In this document: positions 2,723 through 60,535 of the stretch, one piece after another
Position numbering within the stretch: the first letter of the stretch is position 1
Layout of the letters: every line of letters begins with the position of its first letter
Source of the DNA: Candidatus Latescibacterota bacterium
Lineage (GTDB): Bacteria > Latescibacterota > UBA2968 > GCA-2709665
Direction: 5' to 3'
Length of the DNA: 64,000 nt
NCBI GenBank assembly: GCA_965226795.1
Contig: CBDDDZ010000005.1
Location: forward strand, 2,304,001-2,368,000
The notes under the pieces: generated by a model
What the model was told of the DNA's origin: nothing
What the model saw: the letters and a program-made list of their open reading frames with translations, nothing else
Database searches by the model: none
Made by a program: the position numbers and the translations under genes

Positions 2723-4215
2723 ATGGTTACGGACCAGCAAGTGAGGAGACTCATGGCGCTGATCCCGAGAGAACCGACGTTGTGCTTGGCAGCAGCAAAG
2801 GCCGGGATGGACGAGAAGACGGCACGAAAATACAGGAGGTCAGGTCAGTTACCCAGCGAGGTTCAAGCCCCCCATACGTGGCGGACCCGTCCAGACCCAT
2901 TCGCCGAGGTGTGGGGCGAGGTCGTGCTGCTTCTGGAGGTGAACCCGGGGCTTCAGGCCAAAACGGTGTTTGAGCACCTGCAGCGTCAGTATCCGGGTCG
3001 GTTTTCGGATGGCCAGTTGCGCACGTTACAGCGCCGCGTGAAGGTGTGGCGTGCCACAGCCGGTCCTCCTCGGGAGGTATTTTTCCCTCAGGTGCACTAT
3101 CCCTCAGACCGTTGCCAATCGGATTTTACGTGTCTCAACGACCTATGTGTGACCCTCGGTGGCTTGCCTTTCGATCATTTGGTCTACCACTTCGTGCTGA
3201 CGTATTCCAACTGGGAGACGGCCTCCATCTGCTTCTCCGAGAGCTTTGAGAGCCTCAGTGGAGGGCTGCAGCAGGCGCTTTGGGAGCTTGGCGGCGTGCC
3301 CCGTACCCACCAGACGGACCGGCTCAGTGCGGCGGTTCAGGACGTGGGGCGCCAGGAGATCTTCACCGCACGTTATCGGGCGCTGCTGTCCCACTACGGC
3401 CTGGAAGCCCGTGCGACCCAGGCTGCGCCAGTCCTCACGAGAATGGCGACGTGGAGCAGCGTCACTACCGCTTCAAGCAGGCCCTGGACCAGGCCCTGAT
3501 GTTGCGTGGCTCCCGGGCGTTTGACACCCGCAGATCCTATGAGCGCTTTGTACGCCGTCTGCTTTCCCAACTCAACGCCGGCCGGAAGGATCGCGTGCAG
3601 GAAGAGTTGGCCCTGTTGCGTCCCCTTCCCCAAAGGCGCCTGGAGACCTGCAAGCGCCTGCGGGTCAAGGTCGGGAAAAGCAGCACCATCCGCGTGGTCC
3701 ACAACGTCTACTCGGTCAACAGCCGCCTGATCGGGGAGACGGTGGATGTGCGTGTCCACACCGAACACATCGAGGTCTGGTATGGCTCCCGCCGTGTAGA
3801 GCGCCTGCCCCGGCTGCGTGGGGAAAGCCACCACCTGATCCAGTACCGGCACATCATCGACTGGCTGGTGCGTAAGCCCGGCGCTTTTGAAAACTATCGC
3901 TACCGTGCGGACCTGTTTCCCACCAGCCGCTTCCGGATGGCCTACGACAGCCTGCGAGCCCATCATACCCCACGGCGTGCCGACAGTGCATATCTGCGCA
4001 TCCTCCACCTTGCCGCCAAGGAGAGCCAAACCAAGGTGGAACAGGCCCTTTGTCATCTTCTGCGACAGGATAGCCTCAAAAGCGCCGAAGCCGTCGAAAC
4101 GCTCATCGGGCAGCAACAAGCCGACGTGCCCATCATCCCCGACGTCGCCATCCCTTCGGTAGATCTGAACCCCTACGATGGGCTCCTGCACCCACTGGAG
4201 GTGGCCGCCCGATGA
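2723..4215 (+). pseudogene. istA: IS21 transposase IstA, frameshifted near 3425
   Basis: ORFs 2723-3499 and 3280-4215 carry consecutive IstA parts (QSDFT, HQTD, HENGDVEQ). Confidence 0.9.
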
Positions 4216-4976
4216 GCACCGATCGTTTGCGATCCGACCTGGTGGGCTGTCTCAAGACGTTGCGCCTGCCCACCATACGGCAAGCCTTTGCACAGCAGGC
4301 CGAACTGGCAAGACGGGAAGGACAAAGCTATGAGCACTATCTCCTGGACCTGCTTCAGCAAGAATGCGAGGTGCGCCAACACAACCGCACCCTCCGCTTC
4401 CTACGCGAGTCGAAGCTGCCGTTGGAGAAAAGCCTGGAGATGTTTGACCGCACACGACTGCCCGCACCCCAAAACGCCCTCGTCGCAACCCTTGTGGACG
4501 GCGCCTTCCTCGACCGCACGGAAAATGTGCTCGCCTTCGGGCCCCCGGGCAGCGGGAAAACCCATCTGCTTTGTGCCATCGCGCAGACCCTCATCCATCA
4601 GGGACGCCGCATCCTGTTCACGCCCTGCAACCTGCTGGTACAGGAACTCCTTCTGGCCAAACGCGATCTGCGCTTGCCACGCCTCCTCAAACGCTTTGCC
4701 AAATACGATGCCCTCCTCCTCGACGATATCGGCTACGTCCAGCACAGCCGCGAAGAGATGGAAGTCCTCTTCGCCCTCCTGGCACATCGCTACGAGCGAG
4801 CAAGCGTCATGATCACTTCAAACCTGCCCTTCTCCGGATGGGAGGCCATCTTCAAGGACCCGATGACCACCGCCGCGGTGATCGACCGGCTCGTACATCA
4901 CGCCATCATCATCGATATGAACCTCAAAAGCTACCGACTCGAACACGCACAAAAATACCACAAACATCACCACTGA
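4212..4976 (+). CDS. istB: IS21 helper ATPase IstB
   Basis: GPPGSGKT Walker A, LLLDDIGY Walker B, DRLVHH. Confidence 0.95.
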   Translation: MSTDRLRSDLVGCLKTLRLPTIRQAFAQQAELARREGQSYEHYLLDLLQQECEVRQHNRTLRFLRESKLPLEKSLEMFDRTRLPAPQNALVATLVDGAFLDRTENVLAFGPPGSGKTHLLCAIAQTLIHQGRRILFTPCNLLVQELLLAKRDLRLPRLLKRFAKYDALLLDDIGYVQHSREEMEVLFALLAHRYERASVMITSNLPFSGWEAIFKDPMTTAAVIDRLVHHAIIIDMNLKSYRLEHAQKYHKHHH

Positions 4977-6070: not shown

Positions 6071-7951
6071 CCTTAAACAAGCGTGATGGTGAGATTTTTC
6101 TGGTCCAAGAGACCGGAAAGGCCTACCGTTGTTGGAGATAGATGGATTGCGCTAGAAATCATCACTCCAACGCAGGAGACCTTTCCGGTGAAAAGAATAT
6201 CGGTTGATGACAGCCGCAGGAACAGTGCTCGTCGCAAACGCAAAGTGGCCGCCCGCCACGGTCGAGCGGGGCATTGGCAGGCGCAGCCCCGGCCCATGTT
6301 CAGTCCTGGCAAAGTGCACTACGAGGTGGGCGCCTACACCGACGCGATGAGTTACGGAGGCATCGGCGCCGTGCATCGCCTGGTCACCAAGCTGGGACTG
6401 CCCAAGCGCATCGACGCGTCGCTGTCCCTGTTGAAGGTGCATCTGCCCTATCATGAGTCGGACCACGTGCTCAACATCGCTTACAACGTGTTGTGCGGCG
6501 GCACGCGCCTGGAGGATATCGAGCGTTTGCGACATGACGGGGCCTACATGAATGCCCTGGGTGCTCAGTTGATTCCCGATCCGACCACGGCGGGTGACTT
6601 TTGCCGACGCTTCTCGGAACGGGACATCGTCGAACTGATGGCGTGCATCAACGCGGTGCGATCCTCCTTGTGGGCATCGCGTGGCCGCAAATTGCTTTGT
6701 GACATCACCTATATCGACGTGGACGGCACAAACGTGCCGACGTATGGAAAGCGCAAGAGGGGTATGGACATCTCTTACCAGGGCATCTGGGGCTACCATC
6801 CGCTGGTGATCTCACTGGCCAACACGAAGGAAGTGCTCTTCCTGGTCAACCGACCGGGGAATGTGCCCAGCCACACCGGTGCGGCACCCTGGATCGACGC
6901 GGCCTTGGCGCTGGTGCAGCCCCACGCCAAGCGCCTCTGTGTACGTGGCGACACCGACTTTTCCTTGACCCGACATTTTGATCGATGGGCCAAAAGCGTC
7001 GACTTCATCTTCGGGATGGACGCCAACGCGACGATGCGTTCCCGTGCTGAGGCCCTCGACGAGGCACAATGGCAGCCCCTGCAACGCAAACCCCGTTATC
7101 ACACCGTGACCGACCAGAAGCGGAAGCGCAATCAGCCCCACGAGAAACAGCGCATCGTCCGCAAACGGGCCTACGCCAACCTGGTCCTCAACCACGAACA
7201 CGTGGCCGAGTTCAACTACCAACCCACGCGCTGTAAACGTGTGTATCGCGTCGTGGTCCTGCGCAAGAACATCAGTAAAATGAAGGGCGACCTTGTCCTG
7301 TTCGACGAATGCCGTTATTTCTTCTATATCACGACACGCACGGACGTAAGCCCCGCCGAGATCGTCGCCTGTGCCAACCAACGCTGCGATCAGGAGAACG
7401 TCATCGAGCAACTCAAAAACGGCGTCAACGCCTTGCGCGTGCCCCTGTATGACCTGGTCAGCAACTGGGCCTACATGGTCATCGCCGCCCTGGCCTGGAA
7501 CCTCAAATCCTGGTTTGCCATGATGATGCACCGACACCTGGACCGACAGCAGTACGTCCGCATGGAATTCCGGCGCTTCATCCACAGCATCATCTTGATT
7601 CCCTGCCACGTCATCCAACGCGCGCACACCACCACGTTGCGCCTCATCGGCTATCAACCCACCCTCGATCGCCTCTTCAGCACCTGGCGTATCATTGAAC
7701 GCACCGGATTTGGATAACACCCATGCAGCACGACCGATGACACACACACGCCGCGCCATCCCCACACCCCTCAACGGACCGGTGTGTCCACCACGCGCCT
7801 GACCGACACTTCGGATACTCAATTCACGATAGCGACCACGACAAACACCGCCCCAAAGATCATCCAAAACGCCAATTCCATATAAATCGACACCAACGCC
7901 TCACCACAAACACAGATCGATGTGCCGCACACGAAACTCGCTTATTTTAGG
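6071..7951 (+). mobile_element. IS1380-family insertion sequence
   Basis: IRs CCTTAAACAAGCG / CGCTTATTTTAGG; direct repeat ACTAGT at 6065-6070 and 7952-7957. Confidence 0.92.
6188..7717 (+). CDS. IS1380 DDE transposase
   Basis: PDPTT, IDVDGT, GYHPL, VRGDTDF, QENVIEQLKNG motifs; GTG start after AGGAGA. Confidence 0.92.
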   Translation: MKRISVDDSRRNSARRKRKVAARHGRAGHWQAQPRPMFSPGKVHYEVGAYTDAMSYGGIGAVHRLVTKLGLPKRIDASLSLLKVHLPYHESDHVLNIAYNVLCGGTRLEDIERLRHDGAYMNALGAQLIPDPTTAGDFCRRFSERDIVELMACINAVRSSLWASRGRKLLCDITYIDVDGTNVPTYGKRKRGMDISYQGIWGYHPLVISLANTKEVLFLVNRPGNVPSHTGAAPWIDAALALVQPHAKRLCVRGDTDFSLTRHFDRWAKSVDFIFGMDANATMRSRAEALDEAQWQPLQRKPRYHTVTDQKRKRNQPHEKQRIVRKRAYANLVLNHEHVAEFNYQPTRCKRVYRVVVLRKNISKMKGDLVLFDECRYFFYITTRTDVSPAEIVACANQRCDQENVIEQLKNGVNALRVPLYDLVSNWAYMVIAALAWNLKSWFAMMMHRHLDRQQYVRMEFRRFIHSIILIPCHVIQRAHTTTLRLIGYQPTLDRLFSTWRIIERTGFG

Positions 7952-10762: not shown

Positions 10763-10937
10763 GTCAATATCCTTAACCTGGACTCTCAGAAAACACTCAG
10801 TATGGAGATAATCGCATCTTCAGGACAATCCTCAACGAGAATATCGCCATGATAGCTGGATCGGTGAGGGCAGGGATTGGGGTCTTGTGCGTCATCGGGC
10901 TGGGGTCGTTGGGTTTCGCTCTTGCGCCAGTTTCGCA

Positions 10938-11036
10938 AAACATATCGCCGTGCCCGAAACCGCGGAGCGGTTGGGCGAAGGGTCCTTCGACAGGCTCAGG
11001 ACAAACTCCGGCCCGTAGCCGGGCATGGTCGTGATA
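10938..11036. repeat. att-like site (degenerate cores) with REP-like insert
   Basis: CCGTGCCCGAAACCGCGGAGCGGTTG...GCCGGGCATGG; contains CCTTCGACAGGCTCAGGACA. Confidence 0.7.
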
Positions 11037-21887: not shown

Positions 21888-22910
21888 TCAGAGTAGAATG
21901 TCCGGTGGCAGATCCTCGGTTTTCGGTTTGTTGATCCAAACGGCGTCAGGTAAGTCCGGCGGTGTGGGCAGGCCTCTCACAAACCGTTCCGGATGTGCCG
22001 CGTAGGCCGCTGTCAACACGCGCTGACGATGTGCGTGAACCTTTGGTGCGTGTCCATAGTGTACCGTTGCAGGTGTCATCAATCCCAATCCCGTGTGATG
22101 ATGCTCAAAGTTGTACCACGAAAAGAAGCGGCGTGCCCAGCCTCTGACATCTTCGGGACAGCCAAAGCGATCCGGATAATCCGGTCGATACTTCATCGTT
22201 TTGTATTGCGCCTCTGAATAGGGATTGTCATTGGGCACGTGCGGTCTGGCGTGAGATTTGGTCACGCCCAGATCCGACAGCAACAGGGCGAGACTTTTGG
22301 CGATCATCGGACCGCCGCGGTCTGAATGAATGGTCAACTGCTGCGGATCCACCTCCTGATTTCGGCAACTTTGCTGGATCAATTCTGTAGCCAGGGCAGC
22401 CGACTCTCGCCTGGTCACCATCCAGCCCACGACAAATCGGCTGAAGATGTCCAGCAGCACATATAGATAGAAGTAGGTCCATTTGACCGGTCCTCTCAAT
22501 TTGGTGATATCCCAACTCCACAGTTGGTTGGGACCTTGCGCCAGCAGTTCCGGCTTCTTGTAGGTGGGGTGGGAAAGCTGGTTGCGTCGTTCACGCACCT
22601 GGTCGTTTGCCTCGAGGATACGATACATCGAGCGCCAGGAGCACAGATACGTGCCTTCATCAAGCAACTGTGCCCATACCTGGCGGGGTGCGGCATCCTG
22701 GAACCGTCCGCTGTTGAGTACATCCAGGACGTGTGCGCGTTCCCGCTTCTCCAATGCACGTGACGGCGTCGGTCGCTTTTTGGACAAGCTTTGTCCCGGG
22801 TCTTGCCGTGTCCTTCGGTGGCGGTAAACACTGGATCGAGGTACACCCAACACCTGACAGGCACGGCCTACGCCTACGTCTATGGCCAAATGCTCAGCTG
22901 TCTGTCTCAT
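21888..22910 (-). CDS. IS3 transposase OrfB (rve)
   Basis: WSWDIT, HSDRG, DNPYSE. Confidence 0.92.
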   Translation of the reverse strand: MRQTAEHLAIDVGVGRACQVLGVPRSSVYRHRRTRQDPGQSLSKKRPTPSRALEKRERAHVLDVLNSGRFQDAAPRQVWAQLLDEGTYLCSWRSMYRILEANDQVRERRNQLSHPTYKKPELLAQGPNQLWSWDITKLRGPVKWTYFYLYVLLDIFSRFVVGWMVTRRESAALATELIQQSCRNQEVDPQQLTIHSDRGGPMIAKSLALLLSDLGVTKSHARPHVPNDNPYSEAQYKTMKYRPDYPDRFGCPEDVRGWARRFFSWYNFEHHHTGLGLMTPATVHYGHAPKVHAHRQRVLTAAYAAHPERFVRGLPTPPDLPDAVWINKPKTEDLPPDILL

Positions 22911-23365
22911 GTGCCGTCGGCCTTCTCGGTATTGTCGTTGCCCAGCCCAAGCAGATCCGAAAGTTTTTTTTGGACGTCGATGATGACTTCGGCTTGCGCC
23001 AGCTTTTTGGCAAGCCGCTCATTTTCAACGCGCAACCGGGCAAGCTCTCTTTCTGACGGATCCGCACCAGGACGGCCACGCTTCTTCGTTCCCAATTCCC
23101 CGGCTTCCCGCTGCCGTCGCCATTGGGCCAGACTGGAAGAATACAACCCTTCACTGCGCAAGAGGGCTCCGATCTGTCCGGGCTGGGTACACGCATCAGC
23201 CTGCTTCAGAATGCGCAGCTTATAGGTCTTGGTGAACCGTCGTCGCTTCGCCTTCAGCACCACCTCAGGATCCGCCACTTGATCCGCGCTGGCTGAAACC
23301 GACGGCTCCACTCCCGCTGCTTTCGCCCCGTTTTGGGACGACGTCTTTGCTCCTGTATCCATCAT
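22907..23365 (-). CDS. IS3 transposase OrfA (HTH)
   Basis: RRRFT..YKLRIL, LLRSEGLYSS. Confidence 0.9.
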   Translation of the reverse strand: MMDTGAKTSSQNGAKAAGVEPSVSASADQVADPEVVLKAKRRRFTKTYKLRILKQADACTQPGQIGALLRSEGLYSSSLAQWRRQREAGELGTKKRGRPGADPSERELARLRVENERLAKKLAQAEVIIDVQKKLSDLLGLGNDNTEKADGT

Positions 23366-29088: not shown

Positions 29089-29192
29089 GCTGACACGTCG
29101 TTGGAAGGGACTTGCTTTGGATAGGTTGGCTGCTGGTTTTGTGCACGATTCTCCGAGGTTGGGTGGTTGGGCAATCCATCGCTACTTGCGTG

Positions 29193-29256
29193 CAACATTC
29201 TCGTCTTGCGCGAACTGTCGCAGGCCGTCAGATCTTAACCGCAAGCGGACGTGTTA
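29193..29256. repeat. att-like site, shortened
   Basis: CAAC...CTTGCGCGAAC...CGCAAG..GTGTTA. Confidence 0.7.
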
Positions 29257-35011: not shown

Positions 35012-35157
35012 TAACGTTCCCGGGCTATACGACGTTCCCCGGTCCGGCGAAGCCGGATTGGCGCGGCGCTTGCGTCTCTCAGCAAGCGACGTGACAAAGG
35101 GGAATGTGCCCGAAGGGCCGGAGGGAGCGAAGCGACCGGAGCGAATAGCCCGTGTTA
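35012..35157. repeat. att-like site (long)
   Basis: TAACGTTCCCGGGCTAT...ATAGCCCGTGTTA. Confidence 0.88.
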
Positions 35158-37578: not shown

Positions 37579-37909
37579 CGCGTCACCTCTCTCTGGGGTT
37601 ACCCCAGTTTAGTGGACGGTTCCTTAACTGCACATTCAATGAGCATCCACAGCCAGAAACCTATCATGCCCAAGAGGAGGACAAGCAGGATTTCCCAAAG
37701 ACCTATGCCGAACATTCTCGCCTCCCTTGTTTTCGGTCAATCGAATGGTTGATAATTATCTCGAGCTTTGGATTTAGGGAAGATCTGACTCGGGATTTCT
37801 CCGCTGTCGCATAAATCCAAGTATAGGAACGAGTGTTGATGGTGGGGAGGGTGGGGCTATTTTTGCACGCAATCACGGTTCTTCTGGGGGTGGTGGGGGC
37901 GATTTCTGC

Positions 37910-38040
37910 TAACTACGGTATTACCGAACAGTTACGGTAATGCGTACCTGATCCGAAGATCTGCGAACGTTCGGGAACATTCCACGCTGAAGCTTGTAGC
38001 CCGAACATGTTCAGGAATGCTTCCTATGGTGGCATCGTCT
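37910..38040 (-). other. second copy of the putative primary insertion site (attI-like)
   Basis: similarity to 55817-55947 begins exactly at TAAC. Confidence 0.75.
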
Positions 38041-38296
38041 CTAATCAAAAACTGCCTCCCTTTCTTCCATCAATGCATCCAGCGGGCTCTGGATTTTCGC
38101 GAGATCCCGATTCGTCACCCGAGTATAGATCTGTGTGGTCTTTGGGCTTACGTGCCCGAGCAACACCTGGATATATCGCAGGTCCGTCCCGCGTTCAAGC
38201 AGGTGTGTCGCAAAGGAATGCCGTAGCGTCGGTATCCGCTGGACAATTTTCGCTTTCTCGCAAGCCCAGTCAAACGCGGTCTGTACCGACCTCTCC
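38041..38296 (-). pseudogene. 3' fragment of a second tyrosine recombinase
   Basis: ERSVQTAF...[26 protein letters not shown]...IYT. Confidence 0.9.
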
Positions 38297-51094: not shown

Positions 51095-51340
51095 TCACTC
51101 ACAGAACTGAAATGCGTAGAGCTTCGCGTCGCGCATGATGAAGCGTATCCTGACCGGTTGGCCGGCGAGTTGGCGAAGGTCGCCAGCGGGCCACGAAACG
51201 GGCAGCCTGACGGAATTGCCGACGTGCCATATTGAATCTGCGCCACTATACCCCTCAAGCGGACTTCCGTCTTCGGCGAGTAGTTCAACGCGCACGCTGC
51301 CTCCGGCGGCTGTGTCGACATTGAGTTCGAGGCGCGATCC
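51095..51340 (-). pseudogene. C-terminal fragment of a glycosidase-like protein
   Basis: LELNVD..GGSVRVEL...IRFIMRDAKLYAFQF, similar to the 3' end of the 42461 ORF. Confidence 0.55.
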
Positions 51341-52442
51341 GTAATTCGCCGGTGTTGGCGAATCGGCTGTGGTACTGGCACAGCACTCGGTCCGGTCGAT
51401 CCGCCCGTTTGCCGGCTAGTTCGGGCATCAGCGACACGCCGCCCAGGTCCTCCGGCGTATCGAGTTCGGCCATGTCCATAAACGTCGGATAAAGGTCTAC
51501 CAGGGACACCAGCGCATCGACCTCGTGCCCCGCGCGTACATCCGGGCCGGCGACGATCAGCGGCACGCGAGCGGACGCCTCGTACATCGCGTTTTTCAGA
51601 TGTTGGCGATGTTCCATATTCATCTCGCCGTGATCGCTGGCGAACAGTACATAGGTGCTGTCCATCAGCCCGAGCCGATCGACCGTGGCCATCACCTCAC
51701 CTACCATTTCGTCGACTTCCGTCACCATCGCGAAATACGTGCGCCGCACCGCGCGAATTTCGTCTTCGGTGAACGGATCGGCGCAACCCTTGGTCGCGCA
51801 CATGTAGTCCACCACGGGATGCAGATGGGCCTCATACGGTGGAATGGTCACTGCGTCGGGGTCAATTCTGTCGAGATAGTATTGCGAGGAGACGAAAGCG
51901 GGGTGCGGACAATCCAAACTGCAGTGCAGGATGAAGGGCCGGTCGCCCGCCTGGCGCGTCTCCAGGTAGGCGATGGTGTCCTCGACCTTAGCCCAGTCGC
52001 GCTGGTGTACGCGACGCTCATCCGTTGCGACGTGCTTCAGGCCCGGAAGCGGTCCGGTGCTGCGCGATAGCCGGATGTTGGCCGCGCGGGTCCAGGACGA
52101 TATTCGATTGTGCAGTGAATGGCGGCCTGACAGGTAATCCGTCTTGCCGTAGGCCTGGTGGATATAGCCCGCGTCCTCCAGGTCGGAGACATAGGTTCGC
52201 TCGTCCGGCTCGAGCCCCTTATAATTGTTCCATCCTTCGATGACGTGGGTGTGTTTGCCGCTCCAGCGACTGGAGCGCGACGGGCAACACTGGGGAGAGC
52301 TGCAATAGGTGTTGCGGAACAGAGCGCCGCGCTCCGCCAGATGGTCCAGGTGCGGCGTCTTCACCGCCGGATGGCCGACGCACCCCATCGCGCGCCCGTC
52401 CATGCTGTCGCATTCGATGAACAGGATGTTCCGCTTGCTCAT
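51341..52442 (-). pseudogene. sulfatase (choline-sulfatase-like), 3'-truncated
   Basis: CCPSRSS, YGKTD, SDHGE, RVPLI. Confidence 0.85.
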
Positions 52443-53034
52443 GGCGTCGTCGGTGCGTCCTCGCTCGGATCCCAGATGGTCGCCGCGATGTGCTGCTGGG
52501 GATTCTCGGCGCTATTGAAGTAGTAGATCGTCACGAGCTTACCGTCCGGTCGTACGACCATGCGCGGATAACCCATGTCTCCGTACTGCGCCCCGTCACG
52601 GATCGCGATCTCTTCACCCCACTGGGTCCCGTCAGGGGACGTGAATCGGGCGCGTATCCCGCTCTGTTTGCCTGCCCGGTAGCCGTAGCCGCACACGAGG
52701 CGTCCGTCGGCGAGGCGGACCAAAGCCGGCGGATTGCCGTTGGAGGGGAGGTCGGGCGGGTGGGTGGCGGCGACCTTGCCCAAGAAGCGCCAGGAGACGC
52801 CGCCATATTATAGCTGGCCGCTTCTTCCCGCTGCCAGCTCTCGCCCCCGTCGCGGCTGCGCGAAAGGGCTGGGAAGGATGGTTGCTCACCACTGATTCGG
52901 TGGCCCTGTTCCTTGAACTCGTAGTCGCCGTTCGTATAGCCAACGACGATCTCGTCCGCCCAGCTCCATACCCCGTCGTTGGCCGGCCAGCCCAGGAATC
53001 GGCCTTCCTCTCCGGCTACGATAATATGCTTCAT
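52439..53034 (-). pseudogene. sialidase/BNR-repeat protein with internal deletion or frameshift
   Basis: SRDGGESW, DMGYP; two frames. Confidence 0.65.
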
Positions 53035-53088
53035 GAGACGACCTTCATGATGGCGTACAATGTTCGGATCTTCTTTCCTCATTTCATC

Positions 53089-53173
53089 TAACGTTTTCAC
53101 GGTTTACGAACCTGCGTAGCAGGTTGCCAAAGGCCAAGCCGCCGTAGGCGGCGAAGCGTAAACCGCTGTGTTA
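53089..53173. repeat. att-like site
   Basis: TAACGTTTTCACGGTTTACGAAC...CGTAAACCGCTGTGTTA. Confidence 0.93.
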
Positions 53174-53273
53174 GATGAAGTGGGATCTAAGCCAATGCCA
53201 AACACGCATAGATTACCGCCAGGGCTCAGCCGAGCCGTCCTCGGCGTCAGCTGCAGCCCTTGATTCGCCGGTG

Positions 53274-53741
53274 TTACTCAGGCCGCAAGTTCACTCTGTA
53301 CCGACACGTCGGCCCGAATTCTCCTGGCTCCCGTTCGGTTTCGATGGTGTCGACATACTCTGCGCCGATCAACTCACATGTTCTCCTGGATGCGAGATTA
53401 TCGGATCGGGAAGTGATTAACACCGAGTTGATCCCATGGCGCAGGGCAAGGGGAAACAGCAGGCGACAGCTGCGGGCAGCGTATCTGTTCCCGCGATATT
53501 CGTCGTCCACGTCGTGGCTCAGATTTCCTCCATACTGCTCGAGCCTTTCCGTGCACCGCGTTCTGAGGCGGATACTGCCGATCTTCACGTCGCTGCCAAT
53601 AAGCCGCATCTCGAAACGGTACTCCGGCACCCGTCCCGTGTCAGGATCAGATGGAAGCGTCTCGGTGAGGACGAGCTCAAGGTCTCCGTCGACCAAGTGT
53701 CCTGGATCGTGGAATTCACACTCGGAATTCTTTCGGGTCAT
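53274..53741 (-). CDS. GNAT acetyltransferase cassette
   Basis: YGGN, YRGNRYA, DNLASRRTCE. Confidence 0.8.
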   Translation of the reverse strand: MTRKNSECEFHDPGHLVDGDLELVLTETLPSDPDTGRVPEYRFEMRLIGSDVKIGSIRLRTRCTERLEQYGGNLSHDVDDEYRGNRYAARSCRLLFPLALRHGINSVLITSRSDNLASRRTCELIGAEYVDTIETEREPGEFGPTCRYRVNLRPE

Positions 53742-53848
53742 CCGGTATTCTCTGCGGCCAACTTGTGATTGAACGGCGAATATGCAGTATATCTCCAGAA
53801 TATCGGGAGATACACTGCAAGACCCGACTTTACTTTTCCCATTTCATC

Positions 53849-53986
53849 TAACGGTCAAGCACCCACGAACCTGCCCAGCTGGCACGGCGCTTGCCCCTCA
53901 CGATTCTCATCAAGCAAGCGCCCGTGACAGCGCCAGGCAGGTTCCGCGAAGGGGCGCAAGCCCCGAAGCCGGGGGTGCCGTTGTTA
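53849..53986. repeat. att-like site (long)
   Basis: TAACGG..GCACCCACGAACCTGCC...GGCAGGTTC...GGGTGCCGTTGTTA. Confidence 0.88.
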
Positions 53987-54079
53987 GCCGATGCGGCGCG
54001 CCCCGGGTCCAGGCGCAGCCCTCAAAATGGGTCAGTCTAGCGCACACCATACACGGCCCCGCTTGGTTTTTCCTGACTC

Positions 54080-54883
54080 TCAATTGAGAAAGCTGATAAT
54101 CTCCACAGCTGATACGGAGACTACTCCGTGGTCATTGGTGACGTCACAAAATAGCATCTCCTGCTCGTTCAAAGAGGCCCTTTGGATAATTCGCCTGGCG
54201 GTGTCACAAACGACGGAACCGCCAAGAACACGGCCTTCAGGTATTGGGGTGACCTGGGAAACATAGTTGGACTGGATGACCGGCACATTGAACAATCCTG
54301 TAATCGCTTTCGCCCCCTCTCCGCACCCGTCTCGGGTCATCTCGCCATCCTGGTTCCTTTTGCTCGTCGCGACACTTGGCCACAGAATCACGTCGCTGTC
54401 CTCTAATCCTCGGCCTACCACGTGATCCAGAAAACTCGATTCGGCGCAGAAGACAGAGCCAAAAAGAATACCGTGGATGTCTACAGGAGACCGCTCCTCC
54501 GACTCTACAAAACCCCATAGTTTCTTCCAAGCCTCGATCAAGAATGTCCTGGAGCCAGCAAGTACCGGTCCTTCCCCCGGCTGCAGTAGCAACAGCGCAT
54601 TGAGGAATCCTCTCTTCGAGAGAAAGGGCGAGCCAACCAGTGTGTAAACTTCAATTTCTTGGGTAACCATGCTCAGCTCTTCCAAGCTCGTCTCGATTTG
54701 GCCGTACCAATCAGGCTCTTTGAAGAATTCGTGTAAGTGTTGATCATACCCGGTCAGCATCATCTCTGGGAAAACTATCAGCTCAGCCTCATGGGATGCC
54801 GCCCTTTGCATCCACGCTTCAACAGTCGCGGTATTTTCTTCAACTGTTGCCGACATTGCGGGTTGCATTGAACAGACTCTCAT
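54080..54883 (-). CDS. carbon-nitrogen hydrolase (nitrilase family) cassette
   Basis: IVFPEMMLTGY, FCAE. Confidence 0.8.
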   Translation of the reverse strand: MRVCSMQPAMSATVEENTATVEAWMQRAASHEAELIVFPEMMLTGYDQHLHEFFKEPDWYGQIETSLEELSMVTQEIEVYTLVGSPFLSKRGFLNALLLLQPGEGPVLAGSRTFLIEAWKKLWGFVESEERSPVDIHGILFGSVFCAESSFLDHVVGRGLEDSDVILWPSVATSKRNQDGEMTRDGCGEGAKAITGLFNVPVIQSNYVSQVTPIPEGRVLGGSVVCDTARRIIQRASLNEQEMLFCDVTNDHGVVSVSAVEIISFLN

Positions 54884-54982
54884 TTGATTTCTGGAAAAGT
54901 AGGGCTGAGGGGTGTCATGGTCTTGCTTTTGTGCTCCGTAACCTGGGTTGGGAGGGGTTCCGTATTCTGCGCCGCTTTCGCC

Positions 54983-55065
54983 TAACGTTCTCGCGGGCTG
55001 CGAACCTGGCGAAGCCAGGTTGCTGCGGAGGCGCGTATGCGCCGAAGCCGCAGCCCGTCGTGTTA
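54983..55065. repeat. att-like site
   Basis: TAACGTT..CGGGCTGCGAACCTGGCGAAGCCAGGTTGC...CGCAGCCCGTCGTGTTA. Confidence 0.93.
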
Positions 55066-55226
55066 CACGCTTGCGGCGCGCCCCTTCCACGGCGACGCCC
55101 GCAACGGGCTGTATTAAGTGCACACCATAAACGATGTTTTCTGGTTTTTCGTCCTGTTTCTCAGGTCAATCGGAGGCCCATCAATAGCACCAAGAAAACA
55201 CATATCTCCCGAGTTAACTTCGCCCA

Positions 55227-55721
55227 TTAAAGGGGATTCGCCTTTATGAGTTGGAAGAGGTCGCCTTTCCTGGGGCGTTCGGATGTCAAAATCTCCATCA
55301 ATCTTGCCAGGACGTCAGCCCGGTCGAAACGCTTGAATTCTGGGTACAGCCCGATACGCCAATGGAGATAACCTTCAAGCTGTTTCGGATCTGTGAAAAT
55401 CTGTTTGGCCGCCAGAAACTCTGCTTGTAAGGCACGCCGATGTGCATAGGCATGTGAGCGTGAGGCCAACTTGTGTTGAATTTCCACATGCTCGTGTAGA
55501 GCAAACAAACGCGCATACTGCTCGTTCAATTCGATTAGGTCTTCTGGGATGTAAATCGTCCCTGCTTCGTCGTAGAAAGCCAGATCGGGTGTATCGGCTT
55601 CACACCGAAACACCGCATAAGAGATGGGCGTGTCAGCTACGACTGCCTGCTCGGTGCGGATGACTGACTGCTCAATAGCATCGAACAACTCAGTGGCTTC
55701 CGGGTGTGGCAATCGGAGCAT
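55227..55721 (-). CDS. hypothetical protein with HExxE/H metalloprotease-like motif; first cassette
   Basis: ALHEHVE...AH. Confidence 0.55.
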   Translation of the reverse strand: MLRLPHPEATELFDAIEQSVIRTEQAVVADTPISYAVFRCEADTPDLAFYDEAGTIYIPEDLIELNEQYARLFALHEHVEIQHKLASRSHAYAHRRALQAEFLAAKQIFTDPKQLEGYLHWRIGLYPEFKRFDRADVLARLMEILTSERPRKGDLFQLIKANPL

Positions 55722-55816
55722 AGGTATGGCTCTCGGGTGGGGTGTGTTCAGGGTTTTTGCTTTTTGTGCACGATCTGCAGGGTGGGGTGGTTGGGCCATC
55801 CTGCGCCGCTTGCGTG

Positions 55817-55947
55817 TAACTATGGTATTACCGAACCGTTACGGTAATGCGGGCCAGATCGGAGAATTCCCGAACGTTCGGGAACATTCCACGCTGAAGC
55901 TTGTAGCCCAAACATGTTCAGGAATGCTTCCTATGGTGGCATCGTCT
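55817..55947 (-). other. putative primary insertion site (attI-like) downstream of the recombinase
   Basis: TAAC core, ATTACCG/CGGTAAT dyad, perfect palindrome TTCCCGAACGTTCGGGAA at 55867-55884. Confidence 0.7.
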
Positions 55948-57080
55948 CTAACCAAAAACTGCCCCCCTTTCTTCCATCAATGCATCCGGCGGGCTCTGGA
56001 TTTTCGCGAGATCCCGATTCGTCACCCGAGTATAGATCTGTGTGGTTTTTGGGCTTGCATGCCCCAGCAACACCTGGATATATCGCAGGTCGGTCCCGCG
56101 TTCAAGCAGGTGTGTCGCAAAGGAATGCCGTAGCGTATGTATCGATATCCGCTTGTTAATATTGGCTTTCTTGCAAGCCCGGTCAAATGCTTTCTGAACT
56201 GATCGCTCGGTCAAATGCCGTCCCGGCCTTGCGCCCGGGAACAACCATGTTTCGGGTGGATATTGGCGCCTGTAGTCTTGAACCGCCTTCTGTGCGACCG
56301 CGGAGAGCATTGTGTAGCGATCCTTCCGGTGCTTGCCCTGACGAACATGAACCAGCTTTCGGTCCAGGTCGATATCTTCGACCTTTAGCCGGACCGCTTC
56401 ACCCAATCGGAGGCCTCCGGAATAGGTCAACAGGATGATCGCCCGATGCTTCAGGTTTTCTACCGCATCCAGTAACCGAAGCACTTCGGGCCGGCTCAAC
56501 ACAGTGGGCAATTTGTGCTCTTTTTTCGGACGGGGCAGGTTTTCAAGCGGATGCTGATCTTTTAACACACGGAGAAACAGGAATTTCAGTGCGCTCACGC
56601 ACTGATTGACGTAACTGTGCGAGGCTCCCGTTTCAAGGAGGTGATACACGTAATATCGGACCTCCATCTCCCCAAAAGATCGAGGTGCCTTGCCGCAATA
56701 ATTGGCAAATCGTCTGACGTGACCAAGGTAAGCTTTTCGCGCTTTTCGCGCGATACCCACCTGAGCCTCAACTCTTTTGCCATTTCTTCCAGAAACCCCT
56801 CAGGCTGATGCAGCGGTACTTCCAACCGGGTAATAGACACTGGATAAATAGATCCTGTCTCCGTGGGATCAACCCTGAACAATGTCGTCAGCTTTTCCAG
56901 CACCGCGCTTGTTCGGGGAATGCTCCAGAACCTGACAGCTGCCTCCCATCTTCGACCTGGTATCGTCTTGATTTTCTTGACACCATCCGTCGAATAAGAA
57001 AACCGTACGAAAAGACGGCCGTTCTTACCAGGAAACACGTGAGCTTTGGGTTTGTGCGATTTTGGATGTGGATACTCCAT
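55948..57080 (-). pseudogene. tyrosine recombinase (SAM-like plus catalytic domain, extra N-terminal domain), frameshift near 56755
   Basis: [35 protein letters not shown]; the upstream ORF ends ELRLR at the junction. Confidence 0.9.
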
Positions 57081-57546
57081 TGAGGTCTCCTCTCGGCATT
57101 GCAACTGAAAAAAGTGGATTGGCTTTGCTTTCAAACAAATCCCGTGCCGTAGAGACCGCCAATGGAGAACATTAAACGAACCTATTGTGAAACGGCGAGT
57201 TACGTGTTTCGTGTGTCAGATGGGAGAATATCCTTTTTTTACAGACCTTTCAGGTTGCTTGTTTGTTTCAAAACAGACCGTTCAACCCATCCAGAAAGTA
57301 CCATCCGAAGCGCCGCGAATATGAACCCGTAGCATTTCCAGGTCCTCGTATCGCCCCAAAACGACGTTCGCGGAACGGTTGGGAAGTTCGATATGTTAAG
57401 AAATCCGGACATATTAGATTTCCAAAACTGCCAGGAAAAGCGCCGATCATTCGCACGTCACCGGGAACGGAATTCCGGATCCCGTCGGCTGGCGCCGGGA
57501 TGCCTAAAGGAGCGGGCTTCTTTCGATTTCTCTTTTACAGCAGGCG

Positions 57547-58408: not shown

Positions 58409-60535
58409 ATGCGTCTACAATCCGAAATCCTGGCGGTCGAACTGGTGGACGGCAACCGGATGGCGCATTATACCCGCGCCGGACGCGAGACCCATCCTTT
58501 TTCGCCCTGGTTGCTTGTCGAAGCACCGGAAGAGTGCGACAGGGCCGGCCTCTCCGGCGTCCAAAAAATAACGCGTCTCAAGGGCGGCGGTCAGCTTCGG
58601 TTTCTCGTCCACTTCCACTCCTGGACCGATTATCTGGATGCCCGGGGACAACTGTCCGCGGACGGCATTGCCCATTTCGACTTCAATAATCCGGTTAAAC
58701 AGCACCTGCTGCTTTCCGGTAACACGCTTTTTCGGGGCCTGCGTTACAACGACGTCCACCGCCTTCAACTCGATATCGAGACCACCGGCCTGGACCCGGA
58801 AGCGCCTGGCGCACACATTATCCTGGTCGCGCTTTCCGACAACAGGAACTATGAGGAAGTGCTCGGTACCCGGGAGATGTCCGAAGGCGCACTCCTGGAG
58901 GTCCTCAATCAGCGCATTCGGCGCCGCGACCCCGATATCATTGAAGGCCACAACATCTTTGACTTCGACCTCAACTACATCCAGGTTCGCGCCCGGGCCC
59001 TCAACATCAGCCTGACCTGGGGTCGGGACGGCTCCGAACTGAAAGCCGGGAACGGGTTGCGCCGATACCGGGTCGGCGCCCGCAGTCGCACCTTTCGTCC
59101 GGCCTACATTCACGGCCGCCACATTGTTGACACCTATCACCAGGTGCAGCGATATGACATAGGCGGGCGCCTGGAGAGTTATGGCCTGAAGAACGTCGTT
59201 CGTGCGCTCGGCCTGGAGCGCGCGGACCGTGTCTTCGTCGAGGGGGCCGACATCCAGCGAATCTGGCGTAGCGATCCGGGCAAGGTGGTGAACTACGCGC
59301 TGGACGACGTCCGTGACGTTCACGCGTTGAGCGAAATTGTCGCCACCACCGAATTCTACCAGACCCAGTTGCTGCCGTACCGGTTGCAGGACGCCGCCAT
59401 GGCCGGGCCGGGCGAAAAGATCAACGCCATGATGATCGGGTCCTACCTCCGCCGGGGGCTGGCCGTTCCGCGGCCTCAGCACGAGCAGTCGTTCGGGGGT
59501 GGATATACGGCACTGTTCGCCTCGGGCATTTTCAGCCGGGTGGTCAAGGCCGACGTGGAGAGCCTTTATCCCTCCATTATGTTGAATTACGGTATACGAC
59601 CCGCATCAGACACCGAGAACGTATTCCTGCCCATGCTGCAGCGCCTGGCCCGGCGACGTCTCGACGCCAAATCCCGTCTCAAGGAAGCCACTGCCGATGC
59701 CGACCGATCCTACTGGGACGGCCTGCAGGGCAGCTACAAGATTCTCATTAATTCCTTCTACGGATACCTTGGGTATGGCCAGGCGAATTTCAACGACTAC
59801 AAGGCGGCGGAACAGATCACAACCCGTGGCCAGCAGATTGCCCGGCAGGTTGTGACGATGCTGCGGGAAAGAAAGGCCCGGCTCATCGAGGCGGATACCG
59901 ACGGCGTTTATTTCGTGGTACCCCCCGGAATCGACACGGAACGGGAAGAACATCTTTTCGTGGAAGCGTTGTCCGAAGAATTGCCCGAGGGCATCCACCT
60001 ATCCCACGACGGCCGGTACCGGCGTATGATCAGTCTCAAAGCCAAAAACTATATTCTGGTCGATTACGACGGGCGCCTGATCATCAAGGGCAGCAGTCTG
60101 CGAAGCCGGCGCGACGAGCGTGTTTTCCGTGAGTTTGTCCGGAAGCTGGCCCCGCTGCTTGTCAACCGACAGTCCGATGCCGCGTCGGCGCTCTACATGG
60201 AATTCGCCCACCGCTTGAAGGCGGGTCAATTCGATCACAGAGAATTCTGCCGCAGGGAGAGCATTACCAAGAAGACTTTTTCGAATCCCAACCTGCGTCG
60301 GCTGGCCGCAGCCGCAAAGGGATGTGAAGTGGGCGACAGGATTGCCGTGTACCAGAGAAACGACGGCAGCCTCGCGCGAATTGAAACCTACGCCAATGAC
60401 GAAGACAGGGGCTATCTGCTACGGCGACTGCACGATATGGCCGGACGCTTCCGCGGCCTCTTCGACGAAGCCGAATTCAATCGGCGGTTCCCTCTCCTGA
60501 AACCATCCGCGGGTGAGCAACTCAGCCTCTTCTAG
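58409..60535 (+). CDS. polB: family B DNA polymerase (Pol II-like)
   Basis: DIETT, HNIFDFD, DVESLYPS, KILINSFYG, DTDG, C-terminal QLSLF clamp motif. Confidence 0.92.
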   Translation: MRLQSEILAVELVDGNRMAHYTRAGRETHPFSPWLLVEAPEECDRAGLSGVQKITRLKGGGQLRFLVHFHSWTDYLDARGQLSADGIAHFDFNNPVKQHLLLSGNTLFRGLRYNDVHRLQLDIETTGLDPEAPGAHIILVALSDNRNYEEVLGTREMSEGALLEVLNQRIRRRDPDIIEGHNIFDFDLNYIQVRARALNISLTWGRDGSELKAGNGLRRYRVGARSRTFRPAYIHGRHIVDTYHQVQRYDIGGRLESYGLKNVVRALGLERADRVFVEGADIQRIWRSDPGKVVNYALDDVRDVHALSEIVATTEFYQTQLLPYRLQDAAMAGPGEKINAMMIGSYLRRGLAVPRPQHEQSFGGGYTALFASGIFSRVVKADVESLYPSIMLNYGIRPASDTENVFLPMLQRLARRRLDAKSRLKEATADADRSYWDGLQGSYKILINSFYGYLGYGQANFNDYKAAEQITTRGQQIARQVVTMLRERKARLIEADTDGVYFVVPPGIDTEREEHLFVEALSEELPEGIHLSHDGRYRRMISLKAKNYILVDYDGRLIIKGSSLRSRRDERVFREFVRKLAPLLVNRQSDAASALYMEFAHRLKAGQFDHREFCRRESITKKTFSNPNLRRLAAAAKGCEVGDRIAVYQRNDGSLARIETYANDEDRGYLLRRLHDMAGRFRGLFDEAEFNRRFPLLKPSAGEQLSLF

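Follow-up and report, generated by a model that had tools for sequence, protein, structure and literature searches.

A probable attI site of a non-canonical, co-oriented integron in Candidatus Latescibacterota

Introduction

How could gene cassettes be taken up at a locus whose adjoining recombinase lacks the domain by which integrons are recognised? This question is raised by a 64,000-nt stretch of a Candidatus Latescibacterota genome (the window; C5:2304001-2368000 of genome G000, an assembly of 5.4 Mb in 5 contigs). Here the gene of a tyrosine recombinase, on the minus strand, reads toward a segment of ~130 bp that is conserved and ends in GTTA; the cassettes beyond it differ between copies. 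A preliminary description, made from the letters of the window, took this segment for the equivalent of an integron attI site with crossover in or next to the core. Comparison with related genomes supports that placement, and we consider it likely that 55817-55947 is the attI of a non-canonical integron whose cassettes are co-oriented with the recombinase gene.

Integron surveys, as passages of PMC2426708 and PMC4889954 describe them, select on the additional domain of the integron integrase (IntI) near patch III, as does IntegronFinder. In the passage that concerns us, Cury et al. (PMC4889954) report that recombinases missing the IntI region were few in the vicinity of attC sites and never accompanied by three sites or more, and judge them not to be IntI. 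Integrons in which the integrase gene reads toward an attI at its 3' side have been described in parts of the papers on Treponema (PMC3607928) and archaeal integrons (PMC9668308). An attI 3' of the integrase gene is already known; the new part here is the enzyme without the domain. Our literature search found no paper on Latescibacterota integrons or on arrays served by such recombinases.

The comparisons below draw on a phylum sample of 151 genomes (150 in the scan for attC), an order-level sample of 53 genomes for the attI DNA search, and two covariance models of attC, R1 and R2, built in this analysis from sites of this lineage. Data from public sequencing runs (X1, X3, X13 and X15) consist of assembled contigs, from which presence and junctions can be read, without strand, transcript ends or rare excision products. 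Unless another contig is named, coordinates are positions in the window, and the parts of the platform and of the arrays lie on its minus strand where no other strand is given, apart from two palindromes that are given without strand.

The candidate attI region and its copies

The candidate attI region (55817-55947) is the stretch of ~130 bp kept between the stop codon of the recombinase gene (55948-55950) and the core GTTA (55817-55820; TAAC on the plus strand) in alignments of 11 and of 20 copies. TAAC lies 128 nt behind the stop, in agreement with the ~130 bp given earlier. With the four bases of this putative crossover core the conservation of attI ends, and with the same four begins what is common to cassette junctions. 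Beside the core lies a simple site (55821-55850), ATTACCG-N8-CGGTAAT enclosing GTAAC-G-GTTCGG, followed by 11 nt to GTTA. The perfect 18-bp palindrome that had been noted at 55867 reads TTCCCGAACGTTCGGGAA (55867-55884); made up of CGAAC/GTTCG boxes, it is a candidate accessory binding site, and it is kept in most copies, that of locus L013 staying palindromic through symmetric changes (CCGCACGTGCGG). A third palindrome (55910-55919) has decayed and reads AAACATGTTC here and GAACATGTTC in other copies, where base 55910 is G, both in the alignment and in contigs of other copies. The several CGAAC/GTTCG boxes attributed to the site were located at 55832-55836, 55871-55875 and 55876-55880, with one more, half-decayed, at 55910-55919.

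The preliminary description had also reported a natural duplicate, 37910-38296, of the segment 55817-56210. A repeat search gives 93% identity for 37910-38209 against 55817-56116 and blastn 89.5% over 392 nt, the blastn match beginning at query position 117, which is 55817. In the alignment of the two copies, identity does start exactly at TAAC, and the sequences to the left of it are unrelated. The cassettes left of the two TAAC cores differ, as described, and each is closed by the GTTA of the attC site on its far side, at 55062-55065 (attC 54983-55065) and at 35154-35157 (attC 35012-35157). The duplicate is a relic platform, B (37910-38296), which comprises a second attI region (attI-B, 37910-38040) and a 3' remnant of a recombinase gene (38041-38296) and heads an older array (1-37909). 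Its remnant corresponds to the last ~255 nt of the gene, holds an 86-aa open frame with one TAG, and is broken inside the gene at 38296, where there is no core sequence. Further copies that start at the same TAAC lie elsewhere in the genome at C5:2214737 (C; 79%) and C5:2285123 (D; 77%), and a weaker one with the core variant TGAC lies at C2:36276. Each of the copies B, C and D is the relic of an earlier platform that headed an older array, within a run of arrays of ~150 kb. Contig C2 has two diverged relics of the recombinase 3' end (C2:36276-36462 and C2:38033-38133), both with a clear terminator-like hairpin and a T run directly after the stop; in the first these are followed by the attI-like segment with the core TGAC.

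Conservation downstream of homologous recombinase genes stops at the GTTA/TAAC core, as the preliminary description had anticipated. In 11 copies, from five other Latescibacterota genomes and from this one, the stretch that is similar begins at the stop codon and reaches no further than ...GTTCGGTAATNCCGTAGTTA. When 55760-55960, in which GTTA occupies positions q141-144, served as query of a DNA search, it matched 28 of the 53 order-level genomes in 79 rows: 26 matches containing the site end at q143-145, 19 end at q149-160, 12 (the query itself included) run through attI into the leader of a cassette, 19 start at q141, and three end earlier. For 20 distinct copies, taken from this genome and from related Latescibacterota genomes, the fraction of the majority base averages 0.885 over q14-140, stands at 0.99 in GTTA and then falls to 0.62, 0.49, 0.39 and 0.19 in successive blocks.

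Matches that begin at q141 have a bearing on the other side of the junction. They are copies of a leader of ~57 nt, here carried by the first cassette behind the core (A1), and they are located behind attC sites; at locus L022 the leader of A1 stands three times directly behind an attC site, with identity to the window from GTTA onward. The same leader is found behind attI here and behind attC elsewhere, and therefore the attI side and the cassette side, which have GTTA in common, assort independently of each other. Directly before GTTA stands C in all 12 seed attC sites and A in most copies of attI; as this base stays with the left partner, the exchange would lie within GTTA. Contigs of the public runs have loose ends exactly at 55817 in X13, where the flank is that of copy B, and in X15, an RNA library, where it is a cassette known from locus L011, and contigs of X3 and X13 end at 55820. 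Between 55842 and 56095 the summed contig depth reaches 5-10 times the value of the adjacent bins, in keeping with a segment present in many copies. Two joints in cassette order that other samples show, one from 53182 to 51040 and one with 1532 nt inserted at 51342/51343, do not fall at a GTTA core and were not used as evidence.

The site itself does not resemble the partner with which it would recombine. As single-stranded DNA, the 144-nt attI gives a z of -1.8 in a shuffle test, which is not significant, and the attI region has no match to the attC models at E<=1. A hairpin at the attI core was considered and rejected: the fold is not significant (z -0.4 and -0.9), and no compensatory changes are seen by eye in the inverted repeat of the 11-copy alignment. 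Because such changes are lacking, this place is more likely to be bound by protein as double-stranded DNA than to form a hairpin.

Cassettes and attC sites

Repeats of the form TAAC...GTTA recur between the minus-strand open reading frames (ORFs) of the window. The 12 seed sites share one plan on the minus strand: TAAC is followed after 4-5 nt by the first arm of a 9-bp stem, the middle varies and contains one or two hairpins, and behind the complementary arm (consensus TCGCAAACCG) another 6-7 nt lead to GTTA. In the stem, 94% of the cells are paired, against 26-38% with the partner slid, and seven of the nine L-box pairs show compensatory changes. The models used here come from a seed scan followed by covariance modelling, which replaced first scans by minimum free energy with paired ends and by arm alignment (0-1 matches, the same as in shuffles).

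The cassette arrays (10934-55069) hold 29 attC matches at E<=1 with R1 and R2 together, all 29 on the minus strand; relic B and insertion sequences break their continuity. Nearest to the core, cassette A1 (55066-55816) has its leader at 55760-55816, directly behind GTTA, and an ORF within 55227-55799 for which no Pfam family was found. Its attC (54979-55069, with TAAC at 54983 and GTTA at 55065) is the first beyond attI, at a distance of 750 nt, and scores 78.9 bits with R1 (E 5.5e-15). As single-stranded DNA this attC folds with z -4.4 and -4.6 on the two strands, and none of 200 shuffles was as good. Other cassettes encode five HAD hydrolases, two NUDIX proteins, FMN reductases, a methyltransferase, and GNAT, Kelch, PIN, SET, HIT, sulfatase and other proteins.

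Beyond the window, all 23 matches at E<=0.01 in the whole genome fall within C5:2210263-2359069 (150 of 4458 candidates were scored). Across 204 kb of this genome, i.e., the window and neighbouring loci, all 37 attC matches are on the minus strand, in blocks left of each copy of the site. The 59 kb between attI relic C and the next array (C5:2214873-2273989) are without matches to the attC models.

Several further observations concern the arrays. The leader has the minus-strand motif CACGCAAGCGGCGCAGG...CCAACCACCCCACCC...GTGCACAAAAA and occupies ~57 nt directly behind the GTTA of some cassettes; besides that of A1, copies lie at 29137-29196 and about 10898-10940, with a weaker one at 37840-37909. 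Many related genomes have it behind attC sites too, with 78-95% identity. It belongs to no Rfam family, and a scan of the window found no Rfam family at gathering score. The leader could be a promoter, a 5' untranslated region or a small RNA. Insertion sequences in the array are an IS21-like element (2723-4976, plus strand; Mu-transposase C-terminal domain and IstB), a DDE_Tnp_1 transposase (6083-7717, plus strand) and an IS3-like element (21888-23365, minus strand; HTH_Tnp_1 and rve). Kelch-repeat cassettes are paralogous at 97%, and other paralogous cassette pairs at 73-93%; the pairs are 30654-31913/41131-42675, 36265-37025/49020-49780, 16283-16582/19338-19637 and 8543-8842/11147-11446. The 1532 extra letters at 51342/51343 occur in contigs of X1 (at low depth), X3 and X13, inside a sulfatase-family ORF (51285-52442), and are probably an insertion-sequence polymorphism that does not lie at a GTTA core. 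Metatranscriptomic contigs of X15 match cassettes and recombinase within 51937-56803 with 0-2 differences at a depth of 3-5, where carry-over of DNA is possible.

The recombinase

The recombinase gene is made up of two overlapping ORFs in different frames. The C-terminal ORF (55948-56760; 270 aa) carries the SAM-like and catalytic domains (Pfam PF00589 and PF13495), and the N-terminal part (56595-57080) lies in another frame, within an ORF of 56595-57134, and is homologous to relatives from the ATG at 57080. Intact homologs have 376 aa (P0001, 94% identity; P0002, 82%). In X3 and X13 there is also a form of the gene with an internal deletion of 392 nt (56118 to 56511).

Against the profile of integron integrases (NCBIfam TIGR02249), the 270-aa ORF reaches 206 bits, below the cut-off of 265, in two pieces that skip profile positions 175-234; no protein of this genome passes that cut-off. 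It also stays below the cut-offs of XerA_Arch (210 bits against 220), XerC (TIGR02224, 187.5 against 335) and XerD (TIGR02225, 181.1 against 329.6). The best solved relative is VchIntIA (PDB 2a3v, E 5e-43), again matched in two pieces, between which the recombinase has 25 aa and VchIntIA 67, and in the alignment the recombinase is missing an insert of ~35-40 aa that is found in the canonical IntIs of the phylum. It does have an IntI-type N-terminal core and an SPLD tail, both absent from XerC/D. A tree of 35 rows, from which the partial ORFs L045 and L091 were left out, recovers the phylum's 10 canonical IntIs as monophyletic (99/99) and XerC/D as a clade (99/98), and places the short recombinases outside both, on a backbone that does not resolve their position relative to IntI and Xer. 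Judged by these comparisons, the recombinase is IntI-like and not a canonical IntI, being without the IntI additional domain and outside the IntI clade.

In addition, the protein has an N-terminal domain of ~95 aa, for which no Pfam family scores above its cut-off; HARP (PF07443) appears at E 0.027-0.057 in four of six proteins, below its cut-off in all of them. A structure predicted from eight sequences has a pLDDT of 70.7, and of 81-87 over residues 11-70. Foldseek returned nothing at E<=0.001, its top rows being XPB (2fwr, 0.03) and the HARP domain of SMARCAL1 (4o66, 0.05), and VIA-align gave Z 5.8 with the N-terminus of T4 UvsW (rmsd 2.2-2.3 over 60-61 aligned residues), 4.3 with XPB and 3.6 with HARP. 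The model weakly suggests a fold like that of HARP, UvsW and XPB. These three domains reportedly make up one structure-specific DNA-binding fold (in a 2014 paper).

Short recombinases of a second subgroup, S2, have neither the N-terminal extension nor the IntI insert (50-57% identity). They lie divergent from attC arrays of the same type, i.e., in the classical layout, and at two S2 loci the conservation upstream of the gene ends at ...CCGAACCATTTGTTCGGATTCAATCAGTTA, on the same plan as the core of the window.

Natural insertions and the spread of platforms

Does integration favour this site? Natural junctions suggest that it does. In addition to the leader, which is found behind both attI and attC, six IS91-type elements in the related genome G105 bear on this point. 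Each contains a recombinase gene whose product is 50-51% identical to P0001 and matches only its residues 99-371, i.e., without the N-terminal domain, followed by a Y2 transposase (PF04986). IS91 elements with an upstream tyrosine recombinase gene are a named subgroup of IS91. The elements in G105 are 2.5 kb long, and three of them, when compared, were 97.6-99.7% identical; their first bases are (G)TTGAAC, and they finish in an attC-like site that stops at CGTTA, which gives a weak R2 match (E 0.022) in one of the three. They lie inside attC arrays (loci L112, L114, L116 and L118-L123). To the left of all six, a diverged segment of ~130 bp aligns with the attI of the window along its length, and all six begin right after AGTT (AGTT|GAAC), the same point as GTTA in the window; thus six independent elements landed precisely on an attI core. 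We read these insertions as a natural integration assay, one that fits attI and argues against the segment being the end of an insertion sequence. The plan GAAC-N-GTTCGG-N10/11-GTT is shared by the six target sites, the attI of subgroup S2 and the core of the window.

The starts of these elements also recall the other end of the platform in the window. Among relatives (window aligned with L015, L012 and L013), conservation upstream of the recombinase gene covers 57081-57286 and starts at GTTGAAC (57286-57280). This edge is found in two independent contexts, behind a PG_binding gene here and behind the 3' end of a uvrB-like gene in L012 and L013. Since the word is the one with which the G105 elements start, platforms may themselves move like large cassettes, on which two contexts are too few to say. 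A possible attI relic upstream of the platform is not supported, as 27 of 500 shuffles attained its similarity score of 19. The genes on the right side of the recombinase are those for a PG_binding protein, a family-B polymerase, a polysaccharide biosynthesis protein and SCO1 (Pfam); because these are ordinary genes, the recombinase heads the array. The polymerase (58409-60535, plus strand; 708 aa) has an RNase_H-like exonuclease domain and lies 1.3 kb from the left edge of the platform.

On this basis, the whole unit from GTTGAAC (57286) to GTTA (55817) might be a mobile cassette carrying the integrase, of which the 130 bp would be the end and GTTA the junction, with no capture site involved. 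The edge in unrelated chromosomal contexts, the G105 elements with the same start, the relics of platforms inside arrays (copy B, L017 and L011b) and the patchy occurrence of the recombinase (29 of the 151 phylum genomes) would all agree with this. The 130-bp segment, however, is not attC-like, in view of the model and folding results above, and its counterparts in G105 are the left flank of the target, far more diverged than the inserted elements, and so not part of an element end. Moreover, the left contexts number only two, and nothing similar to attI lies upstream of the platform in the window. We regard this explanation as unlikely; it is compatible with attI function and may describe how platforms spread.

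The association of related recombinases with transposases suggests another possibility, namely that an IS91-family element once landed in an attC site and has since decayed, leaving the recombinase as its integrase and TAAC as the mark of the old insertion. The family does include IS91-linked integrases, such as the six copies in G105, which belong to the same broad family, have an attC-like end and are inserted at an attI-like GTT. However, Y2_Tnp (PF04986) has no match at E<=0.001 in this genome, in G124 or in G086, which encodes an intact 376-aa homolog, and the three matches in G085 lie on a different contig from its recombinase. In subgroup S2, whose recombinases head arrays, the nearest match is at least 54 kb from the recombinase in four of five genomes, and there is none in the fifth (G056). 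At the expected place of the transposase, at least 20 copies have the 130-bp segment ending in GTTA with cassettes behind it. The recombinase of the window further differs from the IS-borne enzymes of G105 in having the N-terminal domain that these are missing, and in standing at the head of an array rather than inside a 2.5-kb element. An origin as a decayed IS91 element appears very improbable in comparison with the attI reading.

Recombinase and attC across the phylum

If the short recombinase is the enzyme of these arrays, the two should occur together, and canonical IntI should not account for the arrays instead. Matches to attC were found in 58 of 150 genomes (28 candidates scored per genome). 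In related Latescibacterota loci, all 28 attC matches are on the strand of the recombinase, in eight of 10 loci, and the two are co-oriented in L011-L013, L015, L017, G085 and G128. G085 has 27 attC matches over 34 kb directly behind a homolog of 45% identity, all on its strand, and G059 has one match, among those listed, 1.4 kb behind a short recombinase. The locus of G086, missed by the genome-level scan, has attC matches when scanned locally. At the loci of distant homologs in other phyla (L014 and L016), there are no matches to the attC models and no array-like repeats, which says little because the models are lineage-specific and L014 is a short contig.

The arrays could instead have been built by a canonical IntI that has been lost or acts in trans, the short recombinase being a bystander and the conserved segment its 3' untranslated region or terminator. 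Canonical IntI passes the cut-off in 15 of the 151 genomes, attC matches occur in 41 of the ~121 genomes without the short recombinase, and the paralogous relics on C2 do show terminator-like hairpins with T runs after the stop. Against this, none of 12 canonical IntI loci of the phylum (124 kb) has attC of this type at E<=0.1, and only two of the 15 IntI genomes have attC matches, G085 and G059, in both of which these lie behind the short recombinase, with the IntI gene on a different contig in G085 and 285 kb away in G059. No IntI passes the cut-off in family f1 or in this genome, and the order recombinase, attI, array is kept down to 45% protein identity. Construction by a canonical IntI is, in our view, still a little less credible than descent from an IS91 element. 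An ordinary segmental duplication that came to end at TAAC merely by coincidence was conceivable when two copies were known; it is refuted by dozens of copies with the same edge and unrelated left flanks, and its probability is negligible.

Strength of the attI assignment

Several results weigh against an attI with a working recombinase and should be considered here. The attI function is proposed throughout from comparative sequence. The edge at GTTA is slightly blurred, as 19 of the 79 rows extend 5-16 nt beyond it, and the first cassette bases would therefore be semi-conserved. The association between recombinase and attC matches is only moderate, at 17 of 29 genomes with the recombinase against the 41 of ~121 others. 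A scan of 55800-55960 for sigma-70-like promoters gave no match, the promoter type of the phylum being outside the coverage of that scan. The IntI additional domain, which this enzyme does not have, is reportedly necessary for IntI activity.

A further point is the state of the gene. In this genome it is frameshifted, with the break at about 56735-56760. The match to P0001 falls into two pieces (residues 1-114 and 108-373) and contigs of X1, the run in which the window is best represented, span the break without differences; the frameshift is therefore probably real. The break adjoins a 9-bp tandem repeat (gcgcgaaaa x2), and one contig of X13 is without one base at 56742. Moreover, only two of 14 other genomes of the genus (G124 and G135) have the recombinase, truncated in both and intact in none, whereas 13 of the 14 have kept attI DNA and 12 of 13 have attC matches. 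The platforms of this genus look decayed; given the frameshift, the site in this genome is probably a fossil attI and the system probably inactive here, as far as its sequence indicates.

How would such a system have worked? The crossover would fall within the shared GTTA, the preceding base staying with the left partner and the following bases travelling with the cassette. The recombinase may bind double-stranded attI through GTTCGG-type boxes, of which there are three in 130 bp, the last 11 nt from GTTA, and may also bind folded single-stranded attC through GGTTCG at the L box, 14 nt from GTTA. One strand would be exchanged at G/TT and the product resolved by replication, by analogy with classical integrons as set out in a passage of PMC4792948. 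More speculatively, the HARP-like domain could help to recognise folded attC in place of the missing IntI helix. Subgroup S2 is without both features, and hence such a role cannot be essential for the family.

Relation to known systems

The system has much in common with classical integrons, including a tyrosine recombinase beside an attI that is conserved, has no significant structure and finishes with a GTT core, attC sites that fold and have inverse AAC/GTT cores, R box, unpaired spacer and L box, co-oriented cassette genes for diverse types of small enzymes, and VchIntIA as the best solved relative of the enzyme. It differs in that the enzyme is without the IntI additional domain, falls below the TIGR02249 cut-off and outside the phylum's IntI clade, and has an extra N-terminal domain, and in that attC of this type was not found beside canonical IntI loci. 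Closer in layout are the integrons of Treponema and archaea, where, according to passages of PMC3607928, PMC9668308 and PMC4889954, integrase and cassettes run in the same direction with attI just 3' of the integrase; their integrases, as a passage of PMC9668308 has it, carry the IntI additional domain, unlike the enzyme of the window.

With Xer/dif and Xer-dependent elements such as the CTX phage, the system shares a short tyrosine recombinase without an I2-like domain and, in the case of CTX, the use of a folded single-stranded partner, as part of PMC4792948 describes. In contrast, the protein of the window scores far below the XerC and XerD cut-offs, XerC/D form a separate clade, and the recombinase stands before arrays rather than a single dif site. 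The arrays also differ from CALINs, i.e., attC clusters without an integron integrase, in having a conserved head with recombinase and attI. Judging from the method as given in parts of PMC4889954, programs that require the IntI-specific region would probably class them as CALINs.

Implications

Taken together, we have here an attC array of ~150 kb with relic platforms, a conserved attI region and an adjoining recombinase without the domain by which integrons are defined in practice, and the same pairing of recombinase and attC recurs across the phylum, where canonical IntI loci are without this attC type. A broader reading, which we put forward tentatively and hold to be somewhat less than an even chance, is that the short recombinases of Latescibacterota are a lineage of functional integrons in which the IntI additional domain was either lost or absent from the start. 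It would exist in two forms, one with the HARP-like domain and co-oriented arrays, the other without this domain and with divergent arrays. The core of ~30 bp with GAAC-N-GTTCGG-N10/11-GTT would then be a universal double-stranded target, both for cassette capture and for IS91-type elements acting as 'giant cassettes', and the HARP-like domain would give structure-specific recognition of folded attC. The lineage might be an extant intermediate that connects Xer-like or IS-borne recombinases with IntI.

Should the enzyme prove active, the I2 helix would not be needed for cassette capture, and many arrays now called CALINs may have integrases that have gone unrecognised. The step from a Xer-like ancestor to IntI, as proposed in a passage of PMC4792948, would also become testable with natural proteins, for which the precisely mapped attI offers a substrate. 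Should the lineage be an intermediate of this kind, it would bear directly on the origin of integrons.

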